DNA of 64,000 bases from Bispira polyomma (taxonomy: Eukaryota). The DNA is taken from contig OZ287748.1 in assembly GCA_965649765.1 (NCBI GenBank), forward strand, positions 12,338,001 to 12,402,000, given 5' to 3'. Positions 18,022 to 61,073 of this stretch are shown here, in pieces. Made by a program: the position numbers and the translations under genes. Numbering within the stretch: the stretch's first letter is position 1; each line of letters opens with the position of its first letter. The notes under the pieces were generated by a model. It was given only the letters and a program-made list of their open reading frames with translations. It did no database searches and was not told the DNA's origin.

Positions 18022-18740
18022 ATAAAACTGTGTAGACTGGGTTGATAGAATGGCTTATCCTGTAGGACATGGAGTACTATGTAAAACTTTGTGGACTGGG
18101 TTGATGGAAGAGCTTATCCTGTAGGACATGGGGTACTATATATAAAACTATGTAGACTGGGTTGATGGAAGAGCTTATCCTGTAGGACATGGAGTATTAT
18201 ATAAAACTGTGTAGACTGGGTTGATTGAAGAGTTTATTCTGTAGGACATGGAGTATTATATAAAACTGTGTGGACTGGGTTGATTGATGAGCTTATTCTG
18301 TAGGACATGGAGTATTATATAAAATTTGTGGACTGGGTTGATAGTGGGGCTTATCCTGTAGGACATGGGGTACTATATATAAACCTGTGTAGCCTGGGTT
18401 GATAGAAAAGTTTATCTTGTAGAACATGGAGTACTCTATATAAAACTGTGTAGATTGGGTTGATAGTAGGGCTTATCCTGTAGGACATGGAATACTATAT
18501 AATACTGTATATACTGGGTTGATGGAAGAGCTCATCCTGTAGGACATGGAGTATTATATAAAACTGGGTGGACTGGGTTAAAGGAAGGGCTTGTTCTGTA
18601 ATAAATGGAGTATTATATAAAACTGTGTATACTGGGTTGATGGAAGAGCTTATCCTGTAGGACGTTGGGTACTATATATAAAACTTTGTGAACTGGGTTG
18701 ATGGAAGAGCTTATCCTGCAGGACATTGGGTACTATATAC
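18022..18740. repeat. ~59-61-bp minisatellite, ~12 copies (also 22577-23295 and 27132-27850)
   Basis: Consensus approximately ataaaactgtgtagactgggttgatggaagagcttatcctgtaggacatggagtattat. Confidence 0.95.
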
Positions 18741-19725: not shown

Positions 19726-20025
19726 ATTTAGTGTACCACATGACTGGTAAATTTAGTGTTCTCCATGACTGGTAAACTTAGTGTAAACCAAGACTGATTA
19801 ATTCAGTGTAAACCATGACTGGTTAATTTAGTGTAAACCAGGACTGATTAATTTAGTATAAACCATGACTTATTAATTTAGTATAAACCAGGACTGATTA
19901 ATTTAGTGGAAACCATGACTGGTAAAATTAGAGTACACCAAGACTGATTAATTTATTGTAAACCAGGACTGGTTAATTTAGTGTAAACCATGACTGATTA
20001 ACTTAGTGTAAACCAAGACTGATAA
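19726..20025. repeat. ~25-bp minisatellite, ~12 copies (also 24281-24580 and 28836-29135)
   Basis: Consensus approximately aatttagtgtaaaccatgactgatt. Confidence 0.95.
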
Positions 20026-22116
20026 ACCTTGTATTTGCTACTTAGTGTACATTATACATGTGAAACTAACTTGCCCATTAGGATTATTTTACTGAGCTCA
20101 TGATATAAGTAAAAATATAACATATAACACAATTTATTCTTATGACACAAGTTAGGTGTTGTAATAATAGTTAGACCAGAATGTTTCATTACCACCCACA
20201 GGATTAGTCAGTATATCTGTAGTAGCAGTAGGTATTGACAAAAGCTGTAACTTGTTTGGTGCATGAATAAAAAAAAAGTGTCCACAATATCTATTGAAAA
20301 AGACAGTCACATATATAATATATTGATATGTTGTAAAGACAAAGTCATAAAATAATACATGAATAATTGTATTGAAAATATGCACTGATAAACATTGTAT
20401 TTGCAATCACAAACAATAACTGTTCAGATACCATTAGCGACAGGTTTGTCGAGACTTGTGTAAAAAATAGGACTATCTTATGTGGTTTATTTTTTAACTT
20501 CGCTAGCTTTTGTGTATGCTTTTTAATATGTTCATTTATACATTTAAACAATATATTGTATATTGCACGAAATTTGGACCTCTTATTTACTATATTTTGG
20601 GTTTTGAAACTTGAACTAACAAGTAGATACAATCAATAAGGTAGGTCTATAAACATACAACACTGTATCTAATTATGACAGTACCGCCTTATAATATATA
20701 TATCCAATTTTGGTAGTAAATGTACTACCTCACAAGTACATAACTAATTATGGCAGTGTACGCCTTACAGAATATATCAACTACCAAATTAAGGTTCAAG
20801 TTTCATGAAAAATAAATATATTTTGCTTTGATTACACAAAACACATGCAGAATAATAAACTTTATAATATTTATTAGAAATATAATAATAATCGATCTAA
20901 ATTGATCTTTAGTTAATAAAATGGGATTCCCATGGAAGAGAATGTAAAGAAGTAACAACAACAAATCTAGTTCAGAATTATACAACTACAATCACTTTTA
21001 AGATGGTGGTAGACTGTCAACAATTACACTTTTAAGTCAAATTCGACAAAATATTCAAGCCCATCACTGTATACACGGTACTCAAGACTCAAGTGCTATT
21101 TTATGGCATAGCAAATTAAAAAACCAAAACCTTATCTCCCATACATCTTGTAATCAGATTTACCACTAACTGAAAAACTGTACTTATTAGGTCTGGTTAA
21201 AACTATTGGTATTAAAATGATCTTACAATTTAGGTTATATTTGGAATTACTTTTTGTATTGATTCAAAAACATGACTTGATATATATAAGAAGTAGATGT
21301 TTATGTTATCAGTTTGTATGACTGCTATACCTGGTATCAGGTGACATAAAACCAGTCAGATTTTACAAAAAGACAACTATCATTTTCATGTATCATATTG
21401 CTTAAAGTTCGGGTCTATCAATAGCATTGTACACATGGTGTTGATTCGTTATATGGGTGATAGTGTACTTTATTGTCTATAATAATGCCTAGGTCACACC
21501 TACAAGTACGATTGTAGCCATTCGAATACTTGCACATTTGAATTTGCAATTATCAGCAAAAAGTCATTTTTGGGTTGAAATGTTGAAAAATGACATATTC
21601 TTCCCTTAGGGCAAGCTAGGGAAATCTATTCTCACATTCATAGAACTAATGAAACAACTAAAGATGAAACAAAAACTCTCGCTTCCAATCGTTGGGCTCA
21701 GGACAGCATCATAGCTCTATGATGGACTCGGACATCAAAAATAGACAGATCAAAACATATTAATTCATAATTTGTCCACAAGGTCTTCCAAGGAACTTTG
21801 ATGAAAGTTCTTAAGCATACCCCATTAAAGCAGTACTTTGTCATATGTTGATGCAAGATTTTTTTTTATTGGTGAAACTTTTATAGAATCTAATGTAGGC
21901 ATTCATTTTAGCCAAAAACATTGCTTCTACCACCGATGTTTCGAACAGTTTGAAACAGTTGTAGCATCAATGAAAACATATCTGGAGTTGAATGAGATGC
22001 TCACAGGTTGAGACCAGCATGGAAGAACTCTATTTGACACGATTTGAAATAATATAAAACATTGTTTTATAAACCAGTTTAGTTCAGTATATAGACATGA
22101 ATTGCAAGTTGATGGA

Positions 22117-22336
22117 TTTAAATTTGAATTGGGATATTTAACGTATATTGGGATGGGTAGTTGGAAACGCTGCATACATTTGATCAAGGTTCTGCACTGA
22201 AACCAGTGGTCCACAGTAAAGAACTACCACCTTTACAATATAGCCATCGACGTGATTCGAACTCACGCCGCCCAGAGGTGAGAGACCAGTGATTGTGAAG
22301 CGCAATGCTTGCTAACCACTAGGCCACTGCGACCCC
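22117..22336 (-). mobile_element. SINE family A, copy carried in unit 2
   Basis: Same sequence and TSD as 17562-17781, offset +4555. Confidence 0.92.
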
Positions 22337-25300
22337 TTGCAAGTTGATGGAACAATTTGGTCTAATTTATCATATACTTATATAGGGCCTTAATTCCTGT
22401 ACTTGATGTCATTCACATTGACCCCAGCATGTTTTTGCTCTTAATCTGTGTAGTGTAAAAGAGAAAGGTGGATGTCACTCTCTGATCTGGATCAAGGGAA
22501 TGTTTCTAACCTTATGTGTTGTTAGCTATCTACAACAACCCGGAGATTCCCTCTTGGTGTATCAAGGAATATCAGGATAAAACTGTGTAGACTGGGTTGA
22601 TAGAATGGCTTATCCTGTAGGACATGGAGTAATATGTAAAACTTTGTGGACTGGGTTGATGGAAGAGCTTATCCTGTAGGACATGGGGTACTATATATAA
22701 AACTATGTAGACTGGGTTGATGGAAGAGCTTATCCTGTAGGACATGGAGTATTATATAAAACTGTGTAGACTGGGTTGATTGAAGAGTTTATTCTGTAGG
22801 ACATGGAGTATTATATAAAACTGTGTGGACTGGGTTGATTGATGAGCTTATTCTGTAGGACATGGAGTATTATATAAAATTTGTGGACTGGGTTGATAGT
22901 GGGGCTTATCCTGTAGGACATGGGGTACTATATATAAACCTGTGTAGCCTGGGTTGATAGAAAAGTTTATCTTGTAGAACATGGAGTACTCTATATAAAA
23001 CTGTGTAGATTGGGTTGATAGTAGGGCTTATCCTGTAGGACATGGAATACTATATAATACTGTATATACTGGGTTGATGGAAGAGCTCATCCTGTAGGAC
23101 ATGGAGTATTATATAAAACTGGGTGGACTGGGTTAAAGGAAGGGCTTGTTCTGTAATAAATGGAGTATTATATAAAACTGTGTATACTGGGTTGATGGAA
23201 GAGCTTATCCTGTAGGACGTTGGGTACTATATATAAAACTTTGTGAACTGGGTTGATGGAAGAGCTTATCCTGCAGGACATTGGGTACTATATACAAGTG
23301 CAAATATTCTGAATAAAGATGATTAGCTTTTGTTTTTGCGATAACTTTTGTATATAATTGAAAATAAACATATCTACACCAGGTCCTCAACAGACCAGTT
23401 TCAATAACTCAGACATATTGAGACTTTATTTTAACTCAACACAGACAACCTTCTATATTTGTTACTTAAAACACTACCTATTTACCTTATATATAGTAGA
23501 TATGTCACTAGTACAGACAGGTATATGCCTCTCTCAGAGGTGGTGGGTAATTCAAACAGTGCATCATCTCTCCAATGTATAATGGTCCAATTGACCACCT
23601 CTGTGTACTAAAGGTGTAGAGTGTATACATACATACATCTGTGTCAACTCTGCATACAAAGATCCACTTTCTCTTTAGTCCTTTACTTAATGAAGTGTGA
23701 TTTAAGAAATTGTCAAACACGACACAGATAAACATCTATTCAACTAAATTAACCCCCATTACCACCAACACCCATGTTGTTTATGCTGGATTTAGCTTTA
23801 AACACTGGTAAAAGCTAGGCTTTATTTTGTAAAATTTCTTCAACCATAACTGAAATAAAAACAGGCTATCTTGTTAAAATACACTTCTGTTCACAACCAC
23901 TATTTTAGAAAAATAATTTAAGACGAAAGCGCCTCAGGGCAATTAAAAGCCTCTATAACTTAAAGAAATTAATTTAAATTCTAAATTGTAATAAACCAAT
24001 GTCATGTTTATCTCCTCAATATAATGGTTCAACAAGTTTGTCTTAGGTATGTGTCCTAATAAACAAGCGTGGCCCTCTATAGTCTAGGTTTGCAGAGGAC
24101 AATAGGTGTCTTGATGCTCGCTACAGAAGGTATACATCATGACAAAGGACATTTTTGTTGTTCAACCTCCTTAATAATAAACTACCAACCATATAAACAC
24201 AAACTATGGGGGAAAGAGGGCTCACAGTGACGTGGTCTCTGACAATGGTCTGGGTCTTAGTATAAACCAATACTAGGTTGATTTAGTGTACCACATGACT
24301 GGTAAATTTAGTGTTCTCCATGACTGGTAAACTTAGTGTAAACCAAGACTGATTAATTCAGTGTAAACCATGACTGGTTAATTTAGTGTAAACCAGGACT
24401 GATTAATTTAGTATAAACCATGACTTATTAATTTAGTATAAACCAGGACTGATTAATTTAGTGGAAACCATGACTGGTAAAATTAGAGTACACCAAGACT
24501 GATTAATTTATTGTAAACCAGGACTGGTTAATTTAGTGTAAACCATGACTGATTAACTTAGTGTAAACCAAGACTGATAAACCTTGTATTTGCTACTTAG
24601 TGTACATTATACATGTGAAACTAACTTGCCCATTAGGATTATTTTACTGAGCTCATGATATAAGTAAAAATATAACATATAACACAATTTATTCTTATGA
24701 CACAAGTTAGGTGTTGTAATAATAGTTAGACCAGAATGTTTCATTACCACCCACAGGATTAGTCAGTATATCTGTAGTAGCAGTAGGTATTGACAAAAGC
24801 TGTAACTTGTTTGGTGCATGAATAAAAAAAAAGTGTCCACAATATCTATTGAAAAAGACAGTCACATATATAATATATTGATATGTTGTAAAGACAAAGT
24901 CATAAAATAATACATGAATAATTGTATTGAAAATATGCACTGATAAACATTGTATTTGCAATCACAAACAATAACTGTTCAGATACCATTAGCGACAGGT
25001 TTGTCGAGACTTGTGTAAAAAATAGGACTATCTTATGTGGTTTATTTTTTAACTTCGCTAGCTTTTGTGTATGCTTTTTAATATGTTCATTTATACATTT
25101 AAACAATATATTGTATATTGCACGAAATTTGGACCTCTTATTTACTATATTTTGGGTTTTGAAACTTGAACTAACAAGTAGATACAATCAATAAGGTAGG
25201 TCTATAAACATACAACACTGTATCTAATTATGACAGTACCGCCTTATAATATATATATCCAATTTTGGTAGTAAATGTACTACCTCACAAGTACATAACT

Positions 25301-26671
25301 AATTATGGCAGTGTACGCCTTACAGAATATATCAACTACCAAATTAAGGTTCAAGTTTCATGAAAAATAAATATATTTTGCTTTGATTACACAAAACACA
25401 TGCAGAATAATAAACTTTATAATATTTATTAGAAATATAATAATAATCGATCTAAATTGATCTTTAGTTAATAAAATGGGATTCCCATGGAAGAGAATGT
25501 AAAGAAGTAACAACAACAAATCTAGTTCAGAATTATACAACTACAATCACTTTTAAGATGGTGGTAGACTGTCAACAATTACACTTTTAAGTCAAATTCG
25601 ACAAAATATTCAAGCCCATCACTGTATACACGGTACTCAAGACTCAAGTGCTATTTTATGGCATAGCAAATTAAAAAACCAAAACCTTATCTCCCATACA
25701 TCTTGTAATCAGATTTACCACTAACTGAAAAACTGTACTTATTAGGTCTGGTTAAAACTATTGGTATTAAAATGATCTTACAATTTAGGTTATATTTGGA
25801 ATTACTTTTTGTATTGATTCAAAAACATGACTTGATATATATAAGAAGTAGATGTTTATGTTATCAGTTTGTATGACTGCTATACCTGGTATCAGGTGAC
25901 ATAAAACCAGTCAGATTTTACAAAAAGACAACTATCATTTTCATGTATCATATTGCTTAAAGTTCGGGTCTATCAATAGCATTGTACACATGGTGTTGAT
26001 TCGTTATATGGGTGATAGTGTACTTTATTGTCTATAATAATGCCTAGGTCACACCTACAAGTACGATTGTAGCCATTCGAATACTTGCACATTTGAATTT
26101 GCAATTATCAGCAAAAAGTCATTTTTGGGTTGAAATGTTGAAAAATGACATATTCTTCCCTTAGGGCAAGCTAGGGAAATCTATTCTCACATTCATAGAA
26201 CTAATGAAACAACTAAAGATGAAACAAAAACTCTCGCTTCCAATCGTTGGGCTCAGGACAGCATCATAGCTCTATGATGGACTCGGACATCAAAAATAGA
26301 CAGATCAAAACATATTAATTCATAATTTGTCCACAAGGTCTTCCAAGGAACTTTGATGAAAGTTCTTAAGCATACCCCATTAAAGCAGTACTTTGTCATA
26401 TGTTGATGCAAGATTTTTTTTTATTGGTGAAACTTTTATAGAATCTAATGTAGGCATTCATTTTAGCCAAAAACATTGCTTCTACCACCGATGTTTCGAA
26501 CAGTTTGAAACAGTTGTAGCATCAATGAAAACATATCTGGAGTTGAATGAGATGCTCACAGGTTGAGACCAGCATGGAAGAACTCTATTTGACACGATTT
26601 GAAATAATATAAAACATTGTTTTATAAACCAGTTTAGTTCAGTATATAGACATGAATTGCAAGTTGATGGA

Positions 26672-26891
26672 TTTAAATTTGAATTGGGATATTTAACGTA
26701 TATTGGGATGGGTAGTTGGAAACGCTGCATACATTTGATCAAGGTTCTGCACTGAAACCAGTGGTCCACAGTAAAGAACTACCACCTTTACAATATAGCC
26801 ATCGACGTGATTCGAACTCACGCCGCCCAGAGGTGAGAGACCAGTGATTGTGAAGCGCAATGCTTGCTAACCACTAGGCCACTGCGACCCC
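26672..26891 (-). mobile_element. SINE family A, copy carried in unit 3
   Basis: Same sequence and TSD, offset +9110. Confidence 0.92.
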
Positions 26892-29800
26892 TTGCAAGTT
26901 GATGGAACAATTTGGTCTAATTTATCATATACTTATATAGGGCCTTAATTCCTGTACTTGATGTCATTCACATTGACCCCAGCATGTTTTTGCTCTTAAT
27001 CTGTGTAGTGTAAAAGAGAAAGGTGGATGTCACTCTCTGATCTGGATCAAGGGAATGTTTCTAACCTTATGTGTTGTTAGCTATCTACAACAACCCGGAG
27101 ATTCCCTCTTGGTGTATCAAGGAATATCAGGATAAAACTGTGTAGACTGGGTTGATAGAATGGCTTATCCTGTAGGACATGGAGTACTATGTAAAACTTT
27201 GTGGACTGGGTTGATGGAAGAGCTTATCCTGTAGGACATGGGGTACTATATATAAAACTATGTAGACTGGGTTGATGGAAGAGCTTATCCTGTAGGACAT
27301 GGAGTATTATATAAAACTGTGTAGACTGGGTTGATTGAAGAGTTTATTCTGTAGGACATGGAGTATTATATAAAACTGTGTGGACTGGGTTGATTGATGA
27401 GCTTATTCTGTAGGACATGGAGTATTATATAAAATTTGTGGACTGGGTTGATAGTGGGGCTTATCCTGTAGGACATGGGGTACTATATATAAACCTGTGT
27501 AGCCTGGGTTGATAGAAAAGTTTATCTTGTAGAACATGGAGTACTCTATATAAAACTGTGTAGATTGGGTTGATAGTAGGGCTTATCCTGTAGGACATGG
27601 AATACTATATAATACTGTATATACTGGGTTGATGGAAGAGCTCATCCTGTAGGACATGGAGTATTATATAAAACTGGGTGGACTGGGTTAAAGGAAGGGC
27701 TTGTTCTGTAATAAATGGAGTATTATATAAAACTGTGTATACTGGGTTGATGGAAGAGCTTATCCTGTAGGACGTTGGGTACTATATATAAAACTTTGTG
27801 AACTGGGTTGATGGAAGAGCTTATCCTGCAGGACATTGGGTACTATATACAAGTGCAAATATTCTGAATAAAGATGATTAGCTTTTGTTTTTGCGATAAC
27901 TTTTGTATATAATTGAAAATAAACATATCTACACCAGGTCCTCAACAGACCAGTTTCAATAACTCAGACATATTGAGACTTTATTTTAACTCAACACAGA
28001 CAACCTTCTATATTTGTTACTTAAAACACTACCTATTTACCTTATATATAGTAGATATGTCACTAGTACAGACAGGTATATGCCTCTCTCAGAGGTGGTG
28101 GGTAATTCAAACAGTGCATCATCTCTCCAATGTATAATGGTCCAATTGACCACCTCTGTGTACTAAAGGTGTAGAGTGTATACATACATACATCTGTGTC
28201 AACTCTGCATACAAAGATCCACTTTCTCTTTAGTCCTTTACTTAATGAAGTGTGATTTAAGAAATTGTCAAACACGACACAGATAAACATCTATTCAACT
28301 AAATTAACCCCCATTACCACCAACACCCATGTTGTTTATGCTGGATTTAGCTTTAAACACTGGTAAAAGCTAGGCTTTATTTTGTAAAATTTCTTCAACC
28401 ATAACTGAAATAAAAACAGGCTATCTTGTTAAAATACACTTCTGTTCACAACCACTATTTTAGAAAAATAATTTAAGACGAAAGCGCCTCAGGGCAATTA
28501 AAAGCCTCTATAACTTAAAGAAATTAATTTAAATTCTAAATTGTAATAAACCAATGTCATGTTTATCTCCTCAATATAATGGTTCAACAAGTTTGTCTTA
28601 GGTATGTGTCCTAATAAACAAGCGTGGCCCTCTATAGTCTAGGTTTGCAGAGGACAATAGGTGTCTTGATGCTCGCTACAGAAGGTATACATCATGACAA
28701 AGGACATTTTTGTTGTTCAACCTCCTTAATAATAAACTACCAACCATATAAACACAAACTATGGGGGAAAGAGGGCTCACAGTGACGTGGTCTCTGACAA
28801 TGGTCTGGGTCTTAGTATAAACCAATACTAGGTTGATTTAGTGTACCACATGACTGGTAAATTTAGTGTTCTCCATGACTGGTAAACTTAGTGTAAACCA
28901 AGACTGATTAATTCAGTGTAAACCATGACTGGTTAATTTAGTGTAAACCAGGACTGATTAATTTAGTATAAACCATGACTTATTAATTTAGTATAAACCA
29001 GGACTGATTAATTTAGTGGAAACCATGACTGGTAAAATTAGAGTACACCAAGACTGATTAATTTATTGTAAACCAGGACTGGTTAATTTAGTGTAAACCA
29101 TGACTGATTAACTTAGTGTAAACCAAGACTGATAAACCTTGTATTTGCTACTTAGTGTACATTATACATGTGAAACTAACTTGCCCATTAGGATTATTTT
29201 ACTGAGCTCATGATATAAGTAAAAATATAACATATAACACAATTTATTCTTATGACACAAGTTAGGTGTTGTAATAATAGTTAGACCAGAATGTTTCATT
29301 ACCACCCACAGGATTAGTCAGTATATCTGTAGTAGCAGTAGGTATTGACAAAAGCTGTAACTTGTTTGGTGCATGAATAAAAAAAAAGTGTCCACAATAT
29401 CTATTGAAAAAGACAGTCACATATATAATATATTGATATGTTGTAAAGACAAAGTCATAAAATAATACATGAATAATTGTATTGAAAATATGCACTGATA
29501 AACATTGTATTTGCAATCACAAACAATAACTGTTCAGATACCATTAGCGACAGGTTTGTCGAGACTTGTGTAAAAAATAGGACTATCTTATGTGGTTTAT
29601 TTTTTAACTTCGCTAGCTTTTGTGTATGCTTTTTAATATGTTCATTTATACATTTAAACAATATATTGTATATTGCACGAAATTTGGACCTCTTATTTAC
29701 TATATTTTGGGTTTTGAAACTTGAACTAACAAGTAGATACAATCAATAAGGTAGGTCTATAAACATACAACACTGTATCTAATTATGATAGTACCGCCTT

Positions 29801-30235
29801 ATAATATATATATCCAATTTTGGTAGTAAATGTACTACCTCACAAGTACATAACTAATTATGGCAGTGTACGCCTTACAGAATATATCAACTACCAAATT
29901 AAGGTTCAAGTTTCATGAAAAATAAATATATTTTGCTTTGATTACACAAAACACATGCAGAATAATAAACTTTATAATATTTATTAGAAATATAATAATA
30001 ATCGATCTAAATTGATCTTTAGTTAATAAAATGGGATTCCCATGGAAGAGAATGTAAAGAAGTAACAACAACAAATCTAGTTCAGAATTATACAACTACA
30101 ATCACTTTTAAGTGTATATGTTTTAAATCTTTCGAACATTTACATTTAGGTGAAACAGTTTATGAAAAATAATATATTTAAATAAACAATGACAAACAAT
30201 TCAGTGACTTAGTGTGGTGACTTCTGTACAGCTTG

Positions 30236-43913: not shown

Positions 43914-45425
43914 TTACTACCCCTACAAATTTTTGGGCTTGGGTCAGCCCCCTTTTATTCTCTACTGCAATTTTGATCTGGCCTCTATTCATAATTAGAT
44001 GGCTTTATATGTTAGTGTTTCCAACTTCTTGTTGTATATTAGAACCAACATTTGTTGTTAGTATTTAACAATTTATGTTATGTTTAAATATGTTTAAAGT
44101 AGAAAATAAATTGCCCAAACTATAATTCACATTGTTATTAATCTTGTATGTAATTGGATTGCATCTTTCCTTCTCCAACTTCCATCTTTGAGAGCCCTCC
44201 ATGGGCGCACATGATAGTTTGCCTTTGGTCTATCTTTCCTATGGATTGGATTTCCATAGTTACTTGGTCATAATACTCACACTTTTAGTATTGCTAGCAA
44301 TCGAACTATAGACTGAGTAGCATCTACTAAGGTTGTATATACAGTTTAAGTTTTAAAGTAAGTGCATGAGGTCACCATAGCATAAGGTTGTGAATTTGAT
44401 TAAAGTTTGAAGTTAAGTATGAAGTGAGATAAACGATTACATTATGTACTATATAACGTGTTTCATGTGAAAAAAGATTGGAGCTCATTTGAAGAATATT
44501 GAAGAGTGCACAATGATTTTATATGAGCTAGACTACGAGACAGAAAATCATTGTGCGCTCAATAAGATAGGGTTGAGCAAGCCTTGAAGAGAGCCTCGTG
44601 CAAGCAAAAGATCGCGTGAAGCTGACATTACAATGATCCTCCTTAATCACCTAATTACACGGACACAGGGGATATGATTAGACTGCATCATTGTTCATGA
44701 TATATATTACACCCAATCTATGAAATTGTCCAATTCGTGAAATTTTGAGCTGCCCATTTCACAAAATGAGTAAAAAAATTATTTCCCATTTTTTTGGTTT
44801 ATACATTGTTCACACAGACATTAAGCAAATACATATACAATGACAAAAGAAAGTACTAAATTAACATGGAAATCATACATTTATATCCAACAATACATAC
44901 GGCTGAATTTAATCGAGGTACTTTTCATTTTATTTGGAAAAAGAAATCTTTCTGACTTTTCAACTTTTATTTCTGGCCAAAACATCCTCAGAAAGAGGAG
45001 AGGCAAACAATGAGGGTCATGTGATGCCACCGGACCTGCCAATTAATAATGTGAACAATTGTGTTGATATATGCTTACTTGTGCACTAAAATTTAAATGG
45101 TCAAATATAGGAATAGTGTTTTGTTGGTCAAGTGTCAAATATACTTGAGTACTCATTAAATATGAGTATATTATATTCATACTTATTATGCTGTGTTTTG
45201 AATTTTTCTACTTTATTACTGTGACTAAACAATTAAATTTAGTTTTATCATCATAGACAATTAAGTATCTTTGCATTTGACTGATAAGTAAATAAGCTCT
45301 TACTTTGGACCACCTGAAGTGACACTTTTAGTGTTGTTGTATAAGTACATTAAGGCAACTATTATTTCAAGTGTAGTTCATTATTTGTTGTTAATTTTTG
45401 GTGAAGACTTTGTAAAACAACAGAG

Positions 45426-48400
45426 ATGTGTGACCATCTCATTTCTGTGTTGCGGAGTGTCACAGTTGAGCCAGTGACAGTGTTGTTCTATTTGGCGACC
45501 AGTTTCCAAATGCCCACAGATGACGCACTCTGGTACAGGAAGGTCTGCCTTCAGCTTTATAATGATAAAGAACTGTGTGCAAACATCAATGCCAATGCAA
45601 GCTATGCTGAGATGGAAAAAGAAGTGCAAAGTGTGAATTCTCAATGGAATTTCTTCAGACATGCTTCATTTGCAGTGACAGCCATGGTGACATCATTTCT
45701 CTATGGCTCCTGGAGTGATCGTATCAGCAGGAAGTTGCCTATACTCTTACCACTGTTTGGACTGGTGCTTGGTTGCTCTATCAATATAACATCTGCTATC
45801 TTTATCACATCGTCACTGTATTTTCTCTTGATGTCCAGTGCCCTGCATGGTATTTTAGGGGGAATGTTGACCATGTTAATGTCTACCATGAGCTATATCA
45901 GTGACGTCAGCACACCAGAGTCAAGGACACTGCGCCTCTCCATACTCTATGCCAGTGCTAACACAGGTTCTTTTATAGCATACACATTGTCTGGTGTGAT
46001 ATTTGATCTGACTGGATTTGTTGGTATGTATTCTATATGTCTTGGTTTAAGTGGCATGAGTATAGTGTATGCTGTTTGTTTTATCAAAGATATTAAGCCT
46101 CAAGGTTCAGAAAATCACAGACTGCAAAATGAGGACTCATTAGAGGAAAAAGAAACTGTCAAGCCCACTGATGGAGAGACAAAATCAAATTGTTGCAAAA
46201 GATACTGCGATGTCAAACATGCGAAAGAAGCCTTCTTGGTGACATTTCAGCATCGCGACAATAACCACAGAGTGCACATTGTGACAGTTCTGGTGGTTCT
46301 GATATTTTATTCAATAGGTTCTTGTAAGTACTATATATATTAATATCTTATTGATCCCACATGTTATAATTCCAATTAAATTTATTATTTCAAAAAGATG
46401 TTGCAAAGTACCTTCAAAGACTTTTCAGATTTTGATTGACCCATCCAGAGTTGTCTTGTGTGTTAGATGTGTTGTCACAGATGTTTTTGGCACATAACGG
46501 TGTTAGAGAAGTAGGAGTTCTGACTCCTTTACTTTTCAATATTTATATAAATCAGGTAAGTATTTTATAACGATGATATTGTATTGAGTAGTCCTTCAAC
46601 AAAAACACTATTCTACATATAGGGGTAACCAGCCTGATGTTTTATTTAATGAATCTTAGACTATGCACATGGCAGTCTGTCACAATTATGACGAAAAAGG
46701 TTCTCTTTATAAAGTCTGAAAGTGAAATTTTAACACTGGGTCCAATGCCTGTGATAATTCTTAATGGGTATTTACCTATAAAACCTGAAGTTTCTTGTTC
46801 ATATGTTGTAGGTACAACTGTGCAGTACCTGTATTTAAAACATCCACCCTTGGGGTTTAGTCAAACTATGTATGGTTTCTTTGAAGGATGGTCCATGTTC
46901 ATGAGACTGACAGTGAATGTTTTCTTTGTACCCATGTTAAAGAAATGTCACTTACCTGACATTCCACTACTCATTTTAGCACTGATTTCACATGTTATGT
47001 CAGTGGTGCTGATGGCATTCAGTAAATATACATGGATGGTGTTCTTGGGTGAGTCTATTCTTCCTTAGGATAAGATTTATCTTCACATTTTTGTACATTT
47101 TAGGAACAAACAAACGATCCACATAGCACAAATATTGAATAACATATTTGGCTAGATCACTCTTGACTAACATCAAGTTATACAATTTTACTGAAGCCAT
47201 ATTACATAAACTAAGGAAATCCAAAGATATATTTTATCTGCTCTTATTATTTTCTCCAGAAGTTTGTTAAAAACATCAATACGGTCATGTGTTTACTGTT
47301 GTAGTGTTACCTGCTTTTAGTTTGATATATATAGTTACATTGTTCTCTATATTTTTATCAGTTTATTTTGGTTTTTAGTTCCAGTTGTGGCCTATATGTC
47401 TTATGGTATATTTACTTTTTTGAGGAGTTTTATATCCAGTATGGTAAGGACAGATGAGTTAGGTAGGTGTAAAGCTAATGTAATAAAGAAGGCAGTACTT
47501 TAGATCAATCCTATACACTAGTCAACATAAGACATAGTAATCCAGATAACACATTATTAAACATTTTAATCTTTATTAGTTTTATATATTGTTCTGATTT
47601 CTTAACAACTATATGAATGATATAATTTAATGAAATGCTATAGTCACTATCTAGCCAGTACCATGACGTATCAATCATATACCACTCTTCACTTCAACCT
47701 CTTAATGGTTAGTCATGTCTTACAAGGTAAAATCTTTGCCGTGTTTGCTGTCCTGGAGAACCTTGGTAACATCCTGGCCATAGCTCTCTTCTCCTACTTC
47801 CTGTATCCTCAGACCATTGATATATTTGCTGGATTCACTTATCTATTCCAAGGCTTTATCATGCTGATACCTATTGGCATTGCAGGGTAAGTCATAAGCT
47901 TTAGTTAGTTATCATGCCGATACCTATTGACATTGCAATGTGAGTCACACAAGCTTTATTAGTTAGTTATCATGCTGATACCTATTGGCATTGCAGTGTA
48001 AGTCGTTCGCTTTAGTTAGTTATCATGCCGATACATATTGGCATTGTAGTGTAAGTAACAAGTTAATTTTAGTTATTTATCCTGCTGATACCTATTGGCA
48101 TTGCAGTGGAAGTCAAACAAGCTTTAAGTACTTCAAAATAGATATTTTACTTAAACAAACTAATGTGCAATACTACAACTTGTATATCAAAAACATATTA
48201 TACAGGTAAACATATATATGTAAGTAGCTCATAAATATGTGGTATCCATATAGTATTAATTTCAGCACCAGTTTTTAAATAAGTATTGGTACATGCAAAT
48301 AGTAGTACTATCACTTTGGCATATTAAATATTACAAATAATTGTCTAATTATGTTACAAGTGTGTGTGACTCAACATACTGTCTCTTTTAGATAAATGTT

Positions 48401-52376: not shown

Positions 52377-52582
52377 TTAACAATCTCTTAGGTAACTGCA
52401 CTTAATACATTTAATACCTGATACTACTTGACTGATAGCTAGAGCTTAGTTCTACCTTTGATATTAATCACATGGTTAGTATCTGGATAAGTAGTGCAAA
52501 AAAGGACTGTCTATTACTTGTCAGTATGGTTTTTGGTATTGTTTTCAGTACTTGTCATAGAGAAAGCAATAAGGACTAAAAT

Positions 52583-53917
52583 ATGTCAGAAATGTATTCA
52601 AAGGTAGTTTCTCTGATTCGTAGTTTAACAGTGGAGCCAGTGACAGTGTTGTTCTTTTTGGCGACCAGTTTCCAAATGCCCACTGATGATGCACTCTGGT
52701 ACAGGAAGGTCTGCCTTCAGCTTTATGATGATGCAGAACTGTGTGCAAACATCAATGCCAATGCAAGCTACGCTGAGATGGAAAAGGAAGTGCAAAGTAT
52801 GAACTCTGAATGGAACTTCTACAGAAATGTTTGTTTCTCCCTACCATCCATGTTGACTACATTTCTCTATGGCTCCTGGAGTGACCGTATCAGCAGGAAG
52901 ATAACCATACTCTTACCACTGTTTGGGGTGTTGGCTGGTTGCTCTGTCAATATAGCATCTGCTATCTTTATTACATCATCCCTTGGTTTTCTCCTGATGT
53001 CTAATGCCTTGCAAGGTATGCTTGGGGGAATGATGACTATGTTGATGTCTACCATGAGCTACATCAGTGACGTCAGTACACCAGAGTCAAGGACACTGCG
53101 GATCTCGGTCCTCTATGCCAGCTCAAACATTGGTTCACTTTTGGCATACACTGTTTCTGGTGTTATATTTGACCATACTGGTTTTACTGTCATGTATTCA
53201 CTTTGTATTGGTGTTGTGCTTCTGAGTATATTCTGTGCTATTTTCTTTCTCAGAGACATTAGACCTACCGATGGTCGTGTGGAAAATACTCAAAATGAAC
53301 ATTTAGGAAAACAACAGGTGGATATTACACCCAGTGACAGCAGAGGAATAAAAGCTAGTTGCAGCAAATTCTGTGACATCAGTCATGCTAAAGAAGCCGT
53401 CTTAGTGACATTTCAGCATCGCGAGAATAATCACAGAATGCATATTGTGGCAGTCCTAATGATTCTGTTGTTTTATATGGTTGGTGGCTGTAAGTACATG
53501 AGTATGTCTTTATATTAATTTTGAAAGTGAATTTAAACAATGAAGTACATCATTGTACAAACACGTATGTGTGTTATATAGGTTGTGCTTTACTTGTGTC
53601 ATCCTAAGTCCAATGCTTGTAGTTATCAGGTGGAGATATTTACCTAAAGCCTGTAGTTTATTATTCATCTGTTGTAGCTACAGCTGTACAATATCTGTAT
53701 TTAAAACATCCACCCCTGGGGTTCAGTCAGACCATGTATGGCTTCTTTGAAGGCTGGCATATTTTCATAAAACTGACAGTCAATGGTCTCTTTGTGCCCG
53801 TGTTAAAGAAGAGGTATAATGTGGCTGACATCCCACTCATGATCATTGCACTGATTTCACACATGATGTCCACAGTGGTACTGGCACTGAGTACATACAC
53901 CTGGATGGTCTTCATGG
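52583..53917 (+). CDS. SLC46/PCFT-like transporter, paralogue 2; exons 1-2 only (52583-53489, 53678-53917)
   Basis: Strong similarity to paralogue 1, with the same phase-1 intron positions; exons 3-6 not recognised in this window. Confidence 0.85.
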
Positions 53918-53996
53918 GTAAGTCAGTCATATATTGTAACTCAAAGTTTAATGTTAGTAGTCTACAAATAAATTTCCAAAACCATAAATTTACCAG

Positions 53997-54705
53997 GGGC
54001 CGTATTCACTAACAGACTCAGCCAAGTCTTAGGCTTAAAGTTAAGACTTTTGTCTTAACTTTTGGGGAAAAAAGACTAAGACAAAAGTCTTAGTCTTAGC
54101 GATATTCACAAAGCAGCTAAGCCTAAGTTTTAGCTTAGCCAAGGGCTTAACTTTAAGACAGGTAGGTAGTGGGCTTAACTTTATAGTAAAAAGTCTTAGG
54201 GTTTTTACACAACTTTTACAAATAAAACATTGTAAATTTGAAGTGCATGACAAACTATAAACATTTAACTATGGTATTATGATATCAAATAGCAAACAAT
54301 CCTTACTGTAACCTGTGATAAGTCAAACAAAAAGTAGTATTATTTCTAACATATTTTGAATCATATAGTCTTTGAAGGGGAAGCCAGTCTTAGGCATTTC
54401 TTAAGTCTAAGTCCAATGAAAGAAAATAATTTCTTATTTAATGATTTTTTTTTTACTCTGGGAAGTTCATATAGCCATAATTAATTATATAGTATATGTG
54501 TATGTGTAAAAATGTAAATAATATTTTGTATAATAGTAAAAAGAACAATTTAAATTTAAGACTTTTGTCTTAACATAGTCTTAGCTAAGTCACCTTTTGT
54601 GAATACCATTTTAAGACAAAACTTAGCTAAGACAAAAGTCTTAGATTTAAGACTGGGCTTAGCCTAAGTTTTGGCTTAGTTTAAGACCGTTAGTGAATAC
54701 GGGCC
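53997..54705. mobile_element. PIF/Harbinger MITE with CAG TSD
   Basis: 17-bp TIR GG(G/C)CCGTATTCACTAAC; CAG at 53994-53996 and 54706-54708; subterminal ttaagac/gtcttag repeats. Confidence 0.88.
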
Positions 54706-54784
54706 CAGAGATATAAAAATAGCATATGCTTAACAATTATCTAAGAGTTTATTTGAACTTGGTGTAGGTGACAGGAGTAAACTG

Positions 54785-54851
54785 ACTGCCTTATATATTA
54801 TTGGTATAAAATATATTTCGAACTCCAGTGGGTGTTCTCATCAGAGGCTGT
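54785..54851 (-). ncRNA. Type I hammerhead ribozyme in the 3' pLTR
   Basis: Exact reverse complement of 56889-56955. Confidence 0.85.
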
Positions 54852-55714
54852 AAAAAATTCACCTTTTTTAAGACTTAAGGTGGAAAAATGGACTCCGCCT
54901 GACTCCGCCTGTTCCGGCGGAGCAACTGGGCGGAGCAGAACTCTAAGTGGGCTCTGACTCAAAGGTATTCATTATAGAGACCATAGAACCTGTCCTGGTG
55001 AATAAGTGATGTCCTGGTTGGGGATATTTGTCCATATAGTGGAGTACACAAAGGTAACATTTTTAATGTGAATTTACCAGAGTGTTTAAAAGTTGTTATG
55101 GTTGCCAGTGGGTTGACCAATGGTGAGCCTCCACATATAGAGGTGGCTCTAGTGGTGATTCCACCAGTAATGGCTGGTGTAGTTACTAAATTCAAATCAT
55201 TAATAACTAGGGTAATATTGGTTGACCAGTAGGGGAGCCTCCACAGTTTGGGGTGGCTCTAATGATCTGTACTAATGGGTTACTGTGTATACTGTTGGGG
55301 TGGGGTAAGACACAGTAACCCTAATTAGTAATGTTCAGCTAAAACGGAAGGGAATGTTATTATAGTTATAGGTAGTTGACTACATAAGTAATATAGCTAC
55401 CAAACTATTGATAGGGTGACACAGGAGGGAATGAACAGAATAAGTATTTCATGTACATATTGGTTTAATACTAATAAAGTATAAACAGGAAAAACAACCT
55501 AAATAGGTGGTGTGAATAATCCACCAATGAATATATATATGCAGTAATATAATTAGAAAGAGATTAGGTATTAACTCTAATAATTAAAACCCTATTAGGG
55601 ATAAAGATACTAATAATTTAATAATTGAAGCTTATAGTATAATGGATCATTCGGTAGTAATCCATCCAATATAGTATGATACACAAAATAATACCTATAT
55701 ATTGAGATATTATC

Positions 55715-56491
55715 CTATAAATCCCTGCATATGTTTTCTAGACACTCTAATAGGTGGAATTCTTTACTACTAGAGTCCAAGGGTAAGTTGCCCCACTGAC
55801 TGAAATTAGTTTGCTGTGGCGGTATAGGGTCCTCTAGATTAAGAGTGTCCCCAAACTGGACAGAAACTGGAAGGGAAAGTCCTAGGTGGTCATGTTCTTT
55901 CAGGTACTTTGTAGTGTAGTAACAAGGTAACTCCTTTCCAGGTGTTGCTGGAGAGGAGGTCATGATAGGATCATAAGCAGTAGGTTGTTCATCTAGCATC
56001 AGCACATGTGGTGAGGTGGCCGCTGAGCAGAGCCTGGTAGGGTTTATCTGGGTAGACTTCTCCCTCATAAAAACAGGTGATGTGTTCACTCCCACATGTG
56101 TGTTCTGTCTATAATCAGGTAGGATTGACAGATCAGTTTGGGTTGAATTGCTCGCCCAGGTGGTATGTGAAATGGTTTCAGTGGTGACGACACAGCCCAT
56201 CAGGTTGTGAGCTGAGGGATTGTGTTGCGCTAAATCCAAGATGTCATCCTGTGAGAACAAATCCGGGGAATAAACTTCTGTGTCAACACAGTTTAAAATG
56301 TTTTTGAACATTACATCTGTTTGGCTGTTTGGGCAGTGAGATGTGTGCCTCTTTAAGTAATCAGGTCTCCTGAAGGCCTTATTACAAAGTGTACAGTGGA
56401 TTCTGTATTCCTGATGTCTTGATTTGAGGTGTCTCTTTAAATTCGACTTCCTGCTGAAGGTGGTGTGACAAATATGGCAAGTAAACCACAT
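55715..56491 (-). CDS. Intronless zinc-finger protein (258 aa; one C2H2 and one C2H2/C2HC finger) inside the PLE
   Basis: CHICHTTFSRKSNLKRHLKSRH and CTLCNKAFRRPDYLKRHTSHC, then a Ser/Thr/Pro-rich tail with STQT/STQI motifs; intact from ATG to stop. Confidence 0.85.
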   Translation of the reverse strand: MWFTCHICHTTFSRKSNLKRHLKSRHQEYRIHCTLCNKAFRRPDYLKRHTSHCPNSQTDVMFKNILNCVDTEVYSPDLFSQDDILDLAQHNPSAHNLMGCVVTTETISHTTWASNSTQTDLSILPDYRQNTHVGVNTSPVFMREKSTQINPTRLCSAATSPHVLMLDEQPTAYDPIMTSSPATPGKELPCYYTTKYLKEHDHLGLSLPVSVQFGDTLNLEDPIPPQQTNFSQWGNLPLDSSSKEFHLLECLENICRDL

Positions 56492-56651
56492 TATTCAGAA
56501 TTAGTTTAATTGCTAATATCAATCACAAAAAATTTTTCTCACAAAAATAATTTTTTAAAAAAGAAAGGTGCCACTTGTATATGGGCAATTCAAATACAGC
56601 TTGTATTGTGTAGTCAGACAAAATATCCAGGTAAGTAAGGTGAATTGCCTG

Positions 56652-56729
56652 GTGACGGTGACGTCATAATGCCCTGATCGTAACGTGATGTTAAATGGTG
56701 CGTTACTTCAGAGTGACGTTGTGACGTCA
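56652..56729. promoter_or_regulatory. Cluster of CRE/ATF sites upstream of the zinc-finger ORF
   Basis: Perfect TGACGTCA at 56659-56666 and 56722-56729, plus TGACG half sites. Confidence 0.45.
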
Positions 56730-56888
56730 ATAGAGCCTGGATAGGTGTTTGAGCTCTGTTGAGTGAAGGGCCCAATATGAGAATATAAAGGGTAAGGGGG
56801 CATTAGGGTAAGGGTGCCAGGTAAGAGTCAGGCGGAGTCAGGCGGAGTCCATCTTTCCACCTTAAGTCTTAAAAAAGGTGAATTTTTT

Positions 56889-56955
56889 ACAGCCTCTGAT
56901 GAGAACACCCACTGGAGTTCGAAATATATTTTATACCAATAATATATAAGGCAGT
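56889..56955 (+). ncRNA. Type I hammerhead ribozyme in the 5' pLTR
   Basis: Stem I acagcct/aggcagt, CUGAUGA 56896-56902, stem II GAAC/GUUC, GAAA 56921-56924, stem III uauauu/aauaua, AUA cleavage triplet ending at 56948. Confidence 0.88.
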
Positions 56956-57022
56956 CAGTTTACTCCTGTCACCTACACCAAGTTCAAATAAACTCTTATA
57001 TTATTCACTTGGGTATATAGTC

Positions 57023-57808
57023 ATGAGTGTAAGTGACACAGCTCTCATCCCAGCACTTAACCACCTAGCAGTGGGAGGAAGTTCAGCTTTCAATACTCCA
57101 GAGACAGGTACACCTATACCTGGCAACAGTTTGAGTAATGAAACTCTGAGCCTACTTGAGGAAGCAGCCAATAAACTTGGAGCCCCACCCAATCCTAAAA
57201 AAGGAATGAAAAGGAGACGCATTGAGTCACCAGCAGATGACTCAAACAACACCAGCAGAAATGAGTACCCTATTGAGGCCAAACCACTCTATCTTAAAGT
57301 GAAAGCCCTCTACAGGAAGAAGATCAACACTGCCACCACAATCCAGGCTATCAAGCTACACCTGAAGGATGGGACATTTCCTGTCCAGACCAACTTTAGG
57401 AGTACCCTCCCGCAGAGCACCAATGATCACTTTAGAATGAAATGGAGTGAAGCTTGTAGCTCATTCAAAAGACAGCTAACCAGCATGCTTTCTGACAAAC
57501 TCAATTCAAGGTACTCAGATTACAGATCTGAGATAACAGCTAAAATGAGTGAACTCAAAGCAATTCTCTCAGAAGCCCAATTTGAGGAGATCAAAGATAG
57601 TCTCCAGTTGAAGTACAAGTCAGCAGCCACAACCAAAATGACTGCAAAACTCAATGCAAAAAATCTACCAACCAAAATAGAACCCCCTGTTAAGAAAACA
57701 AAAAAGGAAAACAGGAGACCTGCACCAAGAACTACCAGGCCAAAAAATGACCTTAAGGAGCTGAGACAGTTACTCACTACTCTCAATAAGAAGTTTTTGA
57801 ATAAATGA
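57023..57808 (+). CDS. PLE upstream ORF (261 aa, basic, helical/coiled-coil, NLS-like KRRR)
   Basis: Intact ORF directly after the 5' pLTR; LKDGTFP...F..KW..ACS..KRQL resembles N-terminal extensions of some EN+ PLEs (from memory, unverified). Confidence 0.7.
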   Translation: MSVSDTALIPALNHLAVGGSSAFNTPETGTPIPGNSLSNETLSLLEEAANKLGAPPNPKKGMKRRRIESPADDSNNTSRNEYPIEAKPLYLKVKALYRKKINTATTIQAIKLHLKDGTFPVQTNFRSTLPQSTNDHFRMKWSEACSSFKRQLTSMLSDKLNSRYSDYRSEITAKMSELKAILSEAQFEEIKDSLQLKYKSAATTKMTAKLNAKNLPTKIEPPVKKTKKENRRPAPRTTRPKNDLKELRQLLTTLNKKFLNK

Positions 57809-57979
57809 ATGATTACTCTTATTCATGTTCTTACTTGTATTTAAAGTATATTGTATATAACTATATTGATTCCATTAAAAACCTGTTATTGTTACTTTGT
57901 TGTTATTACTACCTTGGTTACTAACGGAGCTCAAAATTACACCTCAGTAGCTAGTAAACAGATATCCACTGGTTTAAAG

Positions 57980-60366
57980 ATGGAAAGATCTGATTACTTT
58001 AAAACCTTAAATCTTATCAAGGAGAAGGCTAAAACAGCCCCTCCAGGGATATTACCTCCTGGCAAAACCATGGAGGCCCTGATAGGCCACACTGTAATTA
58101 ATCTATCAGATTCCAATCTCAGTGATGCCCAAATAAGTGCACTTCAAAAAGGCTTAACATTTTGCCCAACCCCAGGCCCACCAAATAAATCAAAAATTTG
58201 GTTGGACTTCAAGGAATTCCATAGGCGTCTTTGCTTAAAATATCATTTTTACAATGACAATGGTCAACTCAGTGATTTGACCCAGTCTGACTCCGAATTG
58301 CTTGAATTTTTGGCATTGAACTTAGAGGAAAGTGAAAATCCCTACAAGGATATTCACCAAAAATTTGTGAATAAAAGCTCATGGAAACCACCAAGAATAC
58401 ACTAATCTCTTAAAATTTTCCAAAGAGCTTTTAAATCCAGCCTCTTAAACAGTAAGACCTCCCACAAAAGATCCAAAAATCTTACCAAGGCACAATACTC
58501 AGGCCTCAAAGAACTTAATGACAACCCAGACATTGTCATCAAGAAGGCAGATAAAGGCTCAGCAGTAGTAGTTATGAACACCACTGATTACCTGAGAGAA
58601 GGGTATAGACAACTCTCAGACACCAATTTCTATACTAAACTGGACTCTGATCCTACTGTAGACATCTCCACCAAAGTGTCTAAAACCCTACACCAAATGA
58701 AACATAAGGGGCTCATTAGTGATAAAAATCTTGAACATTTATTACCAGATAATTGCTCAGAAGGCAGATTTTATCTCCTACCAAAAATTCACAAAAAAGG
58801 TGTGCCAGGCAGACCCATTTGTAGCTCAGTACAGCACCCCACCAGTAGAATCAGTAAGTTTGTGGATGAACATATTAAGAAATATGTACCACAGACAAAA
58901 TCATATATTAGAGATACTCAAGACTTTATCTCTAAACTCAGAGATTTAGGCTAAATACCTGAAGGTGCAATTCTTTGCACTTTAGATGTGTCATCACTCT
59001 ATACCAACATCCCAAATCATGAAGGTATACTAGCAGTGGCTGACCACCTCAGAACAGACCCCACCAAATCACCTATAGCTAGCTTCATACTGGACCTAGT
59101 CAAATTAGTTCTTCACAGTATGAATTTTGAATTTAATGGTGATCATTATATCCAAATAGGAGGTACAGCTATAGGCACATCACTTGCACCCAACTATGCT
59201 AATCTTTTCATGGACAGATTTGAGACAAAAGCACTAAAAGGCTACCACTTAAAACCATTAGTGTGGAAAAGATTTATCGATGACATCTTTATGATTTGGA
59301 CCCATGGTGAAAATGCGTTAATGGAATTCGTGAATTATCTAAATAATATTCACCAAACCATTAAATTCACATATGAATACAGCAGAACCCACATAGATTT
59401 TTTAGACACAACAATCAAATTTAATCCACCCTGTATAACAAACCCACTGATACACACTTGTATCTTCACCACACCTCAGCACACCCAAAAAGTGTTTTGG
59501 ATAAAGGTCCATATGGGCAATACCTCAGACTTAGGCGCATATGCACACTTAATGAGGATTTCACCAGTAATGCCAAGAAACTCACTGAGTACTACCTTGC
59601 TCGTGGTTACCCCATTAAATCCCTCAGGGGTCACTTCAGAAAGGCTAACAAATTCACTCAAGCACAATTACTTGCAGTAAATAAAAGGGAGCAAAATGAC
59701 CCTCCAGTTTTAGTAACTGAATACAACCCAATGAACCCTGATATTAAAGGGCTCATTAAAAATAATTGGAATATTTTCCAACACACAGATGACCTAAAGA
59801 AAATATTCAATGAAAAACCTATCATTGGATTCAAGAGGCTACCTAACCTCAGAGATAAACTTACCTCTGCCAAAATTCTGTACCCTGCAGACAGCTGTGA
59901 ACAGTCATCAATAGACCTCCCACCTGTCTGTACCAGATTGGGCAAGTGCATATACTGCCCCAAACTTAAGAAACTGGATCAGTTTACCAGTTTTCATACA
60001 AAAAAGGTTTATAAGTGTATTAATCTCCCACCAAAACCCCGTCTCACATGTGAATTATATAATTTGATTTACATGATCAACTGTAATCAATGTGGATTAC
60101 AATACATAGGGGAAACCAAGAGGCCATTTAGACAAAGGATGTATGAACACATAAGTGTCAGCAATCCAAAACTACAATCATCCACCCCAGTATCAAGGCA
60201 TTTTAGTCAGAAACAACACTCTGCTAAAAATATGGAGTTTAGTATTGTCCATTGGTTAGGTCTGGATAATAAGGCAAATAGTACAGGGCAACGCAGGCGT
60301 CAGGAACTGTACTATATATGGGCCTTACCAACCCTAACCCCCACTGGGATTATTATATTTGTGTGA
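57980..60366 (+). pseudogene. Penelope RT plus GIY-YIG endonuclease ORF, disrupted
   Basis: VINLS, KGLTFCP, KKADKG, FYLLPKIHK..GRPI, LDVSSLYTNIP, GTAIG..APNYANLFM, RFIDD, CxxxxxCxxC linker, IYMINCNQCGLQYIGET...RMYEH; TAA stops at 58403 and 58952, frameshift near 59420. Confidence 0.93.
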
Positions 60367-60453
60367 TGAGGCCCTCTTACCTGGCACCCTTACCCTAGTG
60401 CCCCCTTACCCTTAACAATTATCTCTTTATTGCATAACACACATTACACAATT

Positions 60454-60490
60454 GTATTCCCCCCACGAATATAACTCGTGGGGGGAATAC
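60454..60490. repeat. Perfect 15-bp-stem hairpin
   Basis: gtattccccccacga-atataac-tcgtggggggaatac. Confidence 0.9.
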
Positions 60491-61073
60491 GAGGTCTTAA
60501 TGTCTTAACATTTTTATCTGCACACTGTTAGTCTCAGTAATAGGAGCAAAGTTAACACTAACCAAATATTTTTTCTTACTGTCACCGGGACTAAGGCCAA
60601 AATCAGAGACCAAAACCCTGAGCTTAAGATAAGGACCTTTTGTAAATACGGCCCAAGGAATTGTAAAATATGTTATTCACCTTTGTCAACCCCTGTTGTA
60701 TATTGGTTAAATTGTTGTTCCGATGATCAGAAGGTCCCGAGTTTAATTCCTGGTACTGACTGTTAGTTTTATTAAGTACTATCTCCAGTGGGAGATTAAA
60801 GATACTTGGGGACATTGATAAATGATCATCCTCAAGCCTCGGCACCCATAGTGGCTGCCCATGAGGAAGCGCATTTGAAATGACCCTACGTTTTATAGAA
60901 GGGCTGTAACAAATGTCACATTTCATTTTATTATTGAATAAGTACTTAATATGAACTTTTGTGAGAAATTAGCCTGTGAGTATTTGTCCAAAGTATTGGG
61001 AATTGAGTATTTTCTGTATATCTAATATCCATACAAATACTTGCTGTAGACCAGTAGTTTACAGCTCATCAAC

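Follow-up and report, generated by a model that had tools for sequence, protein, structure and literature searches.

The 64,000 nucleotides (nt) of Bispira polyomma DNA analysed here (contig OZ287748.1, hereafter the window, to whose numbering all positions refer) contain a Penelope-like element (PLE) inserted as two inverted arms within a single target-site duplication. Comparison with related copies indicates that the insertion likely formed (probability roughly 0.7) through reverse transcription primed by the two strands of a ~14-nt staggered cut, each strand using a different one of two fixed start sites that are built into the element and lie kilobases apart. These sites are designated as A and B, and the arms bounded by them as arm A and arm B. 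The original prediction, an earlier reading of the same DNA, had regarded the inversion as a signature of twin priming. The head-to-head inversion is not a special event but the commonest outcome in the family of the element (family 1, 67 of 119 stretches) as well as the published typical structure of PLEs, and the window insertion is an ordinary member of its family.

Geometry of the insertion

The two arms face outward, head-to-head, between the 14-mers at 54729–54742 and 60411–60424, which are identical, can be extended on neither side and occur only twice in the window (Table 1). The duplication, the arrangement of the arms and a 40-bp overlap had been claimed previously and are confirmed, with 39 of the 40 nt matching between 60374–60413 (plus strand) and 56788–56827 (minus strand). 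This overlap consists of the 40 nt by which arm A passes site B. A second overlap of the arms, ~170 nt long, pairs 54743–54911 (minus strand) with 56829–56997 (plus strand). The duplication also shares 3 nt with the element at 60411–60413 and 1 nt at 54742, exactly as described before; the true stagger in this copy is therefore 11–14 nt, and its B end (60410–60413) merges into the duplication. The arm boundaries were correct in their geometry and needed one adjustment: arm B starts at 56828, not 56829, and the junction 56827/56828 is blunt, because base 56828 agrees with the family allele in read-through copies.

The right flank (60411–60500) is single-copy in the assembly. Of the junctions, the right one is spanned without differences (60384–60803) by short-read contigs of three runs, which represent two samples of one study that is possibly the source of the assembly. 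No spanning contig was present for the left junction or the inversion junction among the short-read pieces listed.

Two fixed outer ends

A total of 120 family-1 stretches was fetched, 50 by a motif near B, 10 by the reverse transcriptase (RT) region and 60 mostly by a motif near A. After one stretch at an edge (L136; L numbers denote loci) was dropped, the remaining 119 comprised, besides the 67 A/B head-to-head insertions, 39 one-ended, 10 unclear, two A/A and one B/B stretches; L124 and L125 are one insertion duplicated. Eleven duplicate, microsatellite or doubtful loci were dropped from the counts of duplication length, end position and microhomology, and L125 and two multi-switch copies from the counts of ribozyme stops, inner-end coincidence and A arms near B.

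In the numbering of the element unit (u1 = 56828), site A is at u168–178, ~50 nt downstream of a predicted hammerhead ribozyme cut, and site B is at about u3583–3592, ~45 nt downstream of the stop codon of the RT-endonuclease. The spacing is ~3.4 kb from A to B and ~2.05 kb from B to the next A. Neither site is followed by a 30–40-nt tail, and each end falls within about 10 nt. Site A has no A-tail and is internal to read-through copies. Neither A nor B is the end of the transcript, because tandem copies read through both. Non-autonomous derivatives of 1.4 kb have lost the open reading frames (ORFs) and kept both sites. An exact 22-nt motif near the end of ORF2 has 332 matches in the 1.04-Gb genome.

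Three candidates for pairs of identical sites in family 1 were rejected: L057 is an A/B insertion with a 15-nt duplication, L120 results from a later mirror duplication in which host flank was also copied, and L033 lacks a duplication and extends beyond B.

The same genome harbours relatives with 63–65% amino-acid identity (family 2). This family is young, with copies 98–99% alike and open 810-codon frames. In it, 22 of 34 insertions are A/B, nine one-ended, two unclear and one B/B, with L178–L180 and L188 left out of the count and L190–L191 outside the analysis. The A/B duplications are 14–18 nt long, apart from one of 30 nt. The sole B/B case (L189) was rejected, as it is again a mirror duplication. 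By eye, the four start sites of the two families lie ~9–15 nt before a TTGGG motif, in an AT-rich run.

Several other features of the ends were observed. In L120, L189 and L057 an element end with host flank has been duplicated in mirror orientation or placed within the element; these are secondary rearrangements at PLE ends. At the B ends of six family-1 copies (L053, L066, L067, L094, L099, and L103) and two family-2 copies (L163 and L176), the duplication is preceded by one or more extra copies of the final few template bases. The pattern resembles backward slippage of the RT followed by a new start at site B, and is reminiscent of repeat addition by telomerase. At least four family-2 units with a period of about 5,434 nt, 99–100% alike, form a head-to-tail array (G000:C2:59176063-59193296; L178 and L179), which fits multimeric or circular templates.

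Target cut

A duplication score of at least 11 was found at the ends of 61 of 68 A/B insertions (window included) as compared with 1 of 400 mismatched end pairs, and the duplication was 14–15 nt long in 38 of 59 clean cases. For 11 of the 71 insertions tested, a host-repeat copy carries both flanks and a single copy of the duplicated sequence, i.e., a paralogous empty site. The last duplicated base was A or T in 106 of 118 pooled ends and the third flank base was a pyrimidine in 97 of 118, alike on both sides. Beyond both duplication ends the preference is A/T, then G/C, then two pyrimidines, the first flank base being partly biased by the definition of the ends. The same base preference at both ends is consistent with the same nick on both strands.

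The microhomology at the two ends averaged 1.98 and 1.97 nt (n = 44 and 39) versus 1.0–1.1 nt in two-sided nulls, and none of 5000 permutations reached these values. The two-sided nulls replaced a first, one-sided null (0.82–0.88 nt) that was too lenient. The duplications, the paralogous empty sites and the microhomology thus support the earlier proposal of a ~14-nt staggered cut with priming from both target strands.

Inner ends and the template

The lengths of the arms range from 30 to 5,842 nt, and the inversion junctions differ between copies. The inversion point is therefore not native architecture, and the condition that had been named as fatal to the original prediction, one exact inverted structure in all copies, does not apply to the family copies surveyed. 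The 40-bp duplication, previously listed as part of the inversion signature, is an incidental overlap that varies between copies. It was also rejected as a PLE ‘tail’, since it sits at the inner junction and the overlap varies widely.

Eleven of 65 A arms stop at u122–131, 0–9 nt from the predicted ribozyme cut; the hammerhead fold predicts an RNA 5′ end at u122. Among arms of 38–56 nt, 12 are A arms and one is a B arm (p = 0.002). The positions of these arm ends in the genomic copies suggest that the PLE hammerhead cuts in vivo.

In the 13 overlaps of at least 299 nt, the partner arms are 98.1–99.8% alike, and a better match is offered by no more than one other copy. With ribozyme stops excluded, 8 of 40 insertions have inner ends separated by no more than 75 nt (2.1 expected). 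Six of the 19 A arms that reach B, window copy included, stop no more than 55 nt from it (p = 0.004, for an interval chosen after seeing the data). These three results tend to favour a single RNA as the template of both arms.

Proposed mechanism and alternatives

In the mechanism that we favour, the endonuclease would nick the two target strands ~14–15 nt apart, leaving 3′ overhangs, and a pair of RT-endonuclease molecules would bind signals A and B, in most cases carried by the same RNA. After pairing with 1–4 nt at its signal, each overhang would be extended toward the RNA 5′ end. Each cDNA might then stop at the RNA 5′ end (often the hammerhead cut) or near the other complex, or continue by strand displacement, and the two cDNA 3′ ends would be joined and filled in. 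The simplest template of the window copy would be one uncut transcript of ~5.63 kb that begins at the hairpin apex, passes B and ends at the second A; arm B would have been copied to the transcript 5′ end, and arm A would have halted 40 nt into the B-primed part. What is new is that the start sites are kilobases apart instead of bounding a 30–40-nt tail, and that one of each is used, which argues against fold-back models.

The same dual priming could also occur with two templates, each half of the dimer bringing its own RNA and the A/B rule stemming from protein asymmetry. Two RNAs would explain without strand displacement how both arms can copy the same 1–3 kb (L082, L085, L109, and L129). 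However, free RNAs that each carry A and B predict same-site pairs, and none with a duplication was seen. In addition, where partner arms overlap at length, each is the closest or near-closest match of the other despite the coexistence of many source lineages, and coincidence of inner ends is more frequent than after shuffling; we therefore consider two templates unlikely. A model with single priming at A, followed by fold-back or self-priming, would possibly involve an antisense transcript, as discussed in an excerpt of PMC3846280, and would obtain end B from endonuclease resolution, as an excerpt of PMC8557442 suggests for the tail. It gains from six arm ends (arm B of the window and five others) located at or no more than 8 nt from the apex of a GC-rich hairpin, and from three copies (L052, L075, and L161) in which both arms end at nearly the same coordinate. 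Fold-back nevertheless requires that one arm be contained in the other, whereas arm B of the window holds ~3.37 kb missing from arm A. In L058, L071, L094, and L145, a 40–49-nt A arm is joined to a 1–2-kb B arm with no sequence in common; with ends kilobases apart, such non-overlapping copies rule fold-back out for themselves. B ends also have as much microhomology as A ends, and the model as a whole appears improbable.

LINE-1 (L1) twin priming, reportedly described by Ostertag and Kazazian in 2001, is said to let both target 3′ ends prime and to yield, in order, a duplication, an inverted 5′ part, a junction, an uninverted 3′ part and the second duplication. A minority of L1 copies arise in this way, the first primer annealing at the poly(A) and the second at an internal position that varies. 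An opportunistic reaction of this type, with the first strand started from the RNA 3′ end and the second at a variable internal microhomology, would account for the overall geometry (inverted 5′ and uninverted 3′ parts inside one duplication), the microhomology above chance and the tendency of A arms to stop near B. The analogy, drawn in the original prediction, fails at the second site: 60411–60413 is the fixed terminus B of the family, not an arbitrary internal position. In family 1, the position of B varies by no more than about 10 nt in a unit of 5,461 nt, and family 2 has B at the corresponding place. The present families differ from L1 in lacking poly(A), in the constant position of both sites and in having inversion as the commonest outcome. 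Tandem copies also read through both sites, so that neither is the end of a transcript, and this explanation has very little probability. An artefact of assembly, two independent insertion events or rearrangement of the DNA after insertion would be in keeping with the mirror duplications (L120 and L189) and multiple switches (L096 and L144) that do occur in the family, and with the left and inner junctions of the window that are unseen in independent contigs. Against these stand the single duplication that brackets both arms in the 61 of 68 cases above, the recurrence of the pattern at about 90 loci and the right junction confirmed by short-read contigs; we regard such origins as highly improbable too.

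Several observations weigh against priming at two fixed sites, usually on one RNA, as we propose it. The samples were chosen by exact motifs or best matches, and the family-2 sample, taken next to B, would miss short A/A copies. A fold shared by the four start sites was not found; folding was better than that of shuffles for two of them and no better for the other two. The one-ended stretches (39 of 119), some of them with a full-length duplication, imply that a second cDNA is not obligatory. Four short overlaps (L060, L123, L128, and L150) have many better matches elsewhere, and arm similarity fits one RNA, two RNAs of one locus and gene conversion alike. L060, one of the eight copies with coinciding inner ends, has a 356-nt unassigned gap, and coincidence within 20 nt (2 versus 0.6 expected) is not significant with ribozyme stops excluded (p = 0.12). 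As many as 13 of the 19 A arms pass B, some by 1.5–3.3 kb (L082, L085, and L129), so that a one-RNA model needs long strand displacement. The Poseidon element of Anolis (PAc) is described, in an excerpt of PMC11167929, as starting at a site not homologous to the cut DNA, with a ribozyme dispensable in vitro. Finally, the empty allele that the original prediction pointed to was not found for the window site: there was no element-skipping joint among the matches listed from contigs of four runs, and none at 99% likeness. The expectation of a single-copy target held for the paralogous sites of the 11 of 71 insertions mentioned above.

Features of the element

Read-through copies show a head-to-tail unit of ~5,461 nt with the order hairpin, hammerhead, ORF1, ORF2, and ORF3. 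The alignment of ORF2 displays DKG, FIDD and LIYMINCNQCGLQYIGET, in agreement with the features given for endonuclease-bearing (EN+) PLEs in an excerpt of PMC8557442. In the window copy, two in-frame stop codons and the loss of 19 nt near 59424 interrupt ORF2. The linker between the RT and the endonuclease reads CTRLGKCxYC, which fits the CX2-5CxxC pattern that the same excerpt gives as a feature of Neptune and Nematis, and judged from its sequence the element is a Neptune/Nematis-type PLE. Tandem or partial-tandem pseudo-long terminal repeat units with an inverted upstream copy, as in EN+ PLEs, were seen in read-through copies and in the family-2 array. A hammerhead in the terminal repeat, another EN+ feature, is predicted from the core and three stems. 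Both families have three ORFs in place of the single ORF expected of EN+ PLEs. Membership in the EN+ PLEs stands despite the absent tail, because the tail is described as optional. Relatives on metagenome contigs are 30–56% identical and lie on short contigs, and genomes with relatives of 67–72% identity (P0001–P0007) also exist.

The hammerhead motif had 97 matches in the fetched copies. Its fold energy is no better than that of shuffles (z = −0.62), and an Rfam scan found no hammerhead or other credible family. ORF1 gave no Pfam match above the cut-off and no usable Atlas match, and in both families it is separate from the RT-endonuclease ORF of roughly 800 amino acids. ORF3 is 39% identical to the matching ORF of family 2. 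This C2H2 zinc-finger ORF (minus strand in the window; L179:1176-2027 in family 2) is conserved and often open in both families, and non-autonomous copies lack it.

Table 1 Coordinates of features of the PLE insertion in the window.
Feature	Position	Strand	Remarks
Target-site duplication, left copy, 14 nt	54729..54742	+	Identical 14-mers; family duplications peak at 14–15 nt
Target-site duplication, right copy	60411..60424	+	First 3 nt common to element
Arm A, 2,085 nt	54743..56827	sense on minus	Outer end 54743 at fixed, putative start site A
Arm B, ~3,583 nt	56828..60410	sense on plus	Outer end at fixed, putative start site B
40-nt overlap, arm A passing site B	56788..56827	-	Duplicate of 60374–60413
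Head-to-head inversion junction	56827..56828	.	Blunt, no microhomology; read from sequence
ORF1, ~261 amino acids	57023..57808	+	46% identical to family 2 ORF1
ORF2, PLE reverse transcriptase, CX5CxxC linker, GIY-YIG endonuclease	57980..60366	+	Pfam RVT_1 and GIY-YIG, alignment
ORF3, two C2H2 zinc fingers and C-terminal part without assigned function	55715..56491	-	Pfam zf-C2H2, E = 7.5e-10; between site B and next site A
Type I hammerhead ribozyme motif	56892..56952	+	Three-stem fold with core identified by eye; cut predicted between 56948 and 56949
Second type I hammerhead motif, read through by arm A	54788..54848	-	Mirror of 56892–56952
GC-rich hairpin	54893..54935	-	Fold z = −4.47; 0/200 shuffles as stable
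Site A, read through inside arm B	56995..57005	+	61 family A ends inside this 11-nt span
Site B, equivalent span	60408..60420	+	~45 nt after ORF2 stop; 57 scored family B ends within 9 nt

Comparison with known systems

According to excerpts of PMC8557442 and PMC3846280, a typical EN+ PLE insertion consists of a partial tandem, an inverted 5′-truncated copy and a 30–40-bp tail at one end. The inverted copy and the tail are ascribed there to endonuclease resolution (PMC8557442) or to self-priming on an antisense template (PMC3846280), and the former excerpt calls the origin of the inverted arms and the one-sided tail unresolved. The present families share with typical EN+ PLEs the tandem native unit, the inverted upstream arm, one duplication around the whole insert (8–10 bp in Adineta), two non-identical outer ends, and palindromes at some inverted junctions. 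They differ in that the termini are 2.05 and 3.4 kb apart rather than 30–40 nt, the 30–40-nt tail is absent, end B is outside the hammerhead-bearing repeat, three ORFs replace one, and the duplication is sharply 14–15 nt.

PAc provides a biochemical parallel in the excerpt of PMC11167929: in vitro both target strands are nicked and extended by PAc, synthesis begins at two adjacent internal sites that delimit the tail, and a dimer is predicted. PAc and the present system, the latter judged from genomic copies, have in common that both strands would be nicked and extended, that two internal start sites follow a hammerhead, that targets are AT-rich and that a dimer is predicted. In the PAc excerpt, the sites are adjacent, no strand difference is reported and no RNA reads end at the ribozyme cut. 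Here, in contrast, two distant sites each supply one end of a two-armed insertion, the microhomology is ~2 nt and arms pile up at the predicted cut.

Hammerheads are known from PLE terminal repeats and from non-LTR retrozymes (excerpts of PMC4209133 and of bioRxiv 10.64898/2026.07.22.740005). As in those elements, a type I hammerhead lies in a tandem unit and is retained in short non-coding derivatives. Unlike in those elements, the derivatives here also keep both start sites and insert head-to-head, and arm ends record the predicted cut position. In the openly licensed PMC and bioRxiv literature, we found no PLE mechanism paper on twin priming and none on distant start sites.

Genomic surroundings

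The window contains tandem paralogous MFS transporter genes (45421–47055 and 52580–53924); the insertion follows an exon of the second gene by ~0.8 kb and is probably intronic. A high-copy element with terminal inverted repeats (53995–54708) ends 20 nt from the insertion. The sister PLE L109 was inserted in another copy of this element, which serves as an empty-site control. Elsewhere, at 16445–30000, a 4,555-nt unit that includes minisatellites of 59 nt and 25 nt is present three times in near-identical form, which reflects either a recent tandem duplication or a feature of the assembly.

Implications

With ends 30–40 nt apart, ordinary PLE families make it difficult to tell dual priming from fold-back or endonuclease trimming. 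Start sites split by kilobases give exact coordinates for the two starts, the ribozyme cut, the stagger and the nick preference, and make the dual-priming model unusually testable. The arm-end evidence for hammerhead cutting in vivo contrasts with PAc, for which the excerpt of PMC11167929 reports none. A broader view, which we advance tentatively and at somewhat less than even odds, is that Penelope integration is a concerted two-ended reaction. A dimer of the RT-endonuclease would hold two RNA start signals, loop out the intervening RNA and prime one cDNA per strand of a fixed 14–15-nt stagger. The classical 30–40-nt tail would then be the shortest spacer, and the spacers described here would have grown to kilobases and come to carry whole genes. 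If this is true, both junctions of a Penelope insertion would be programmed by RNA.

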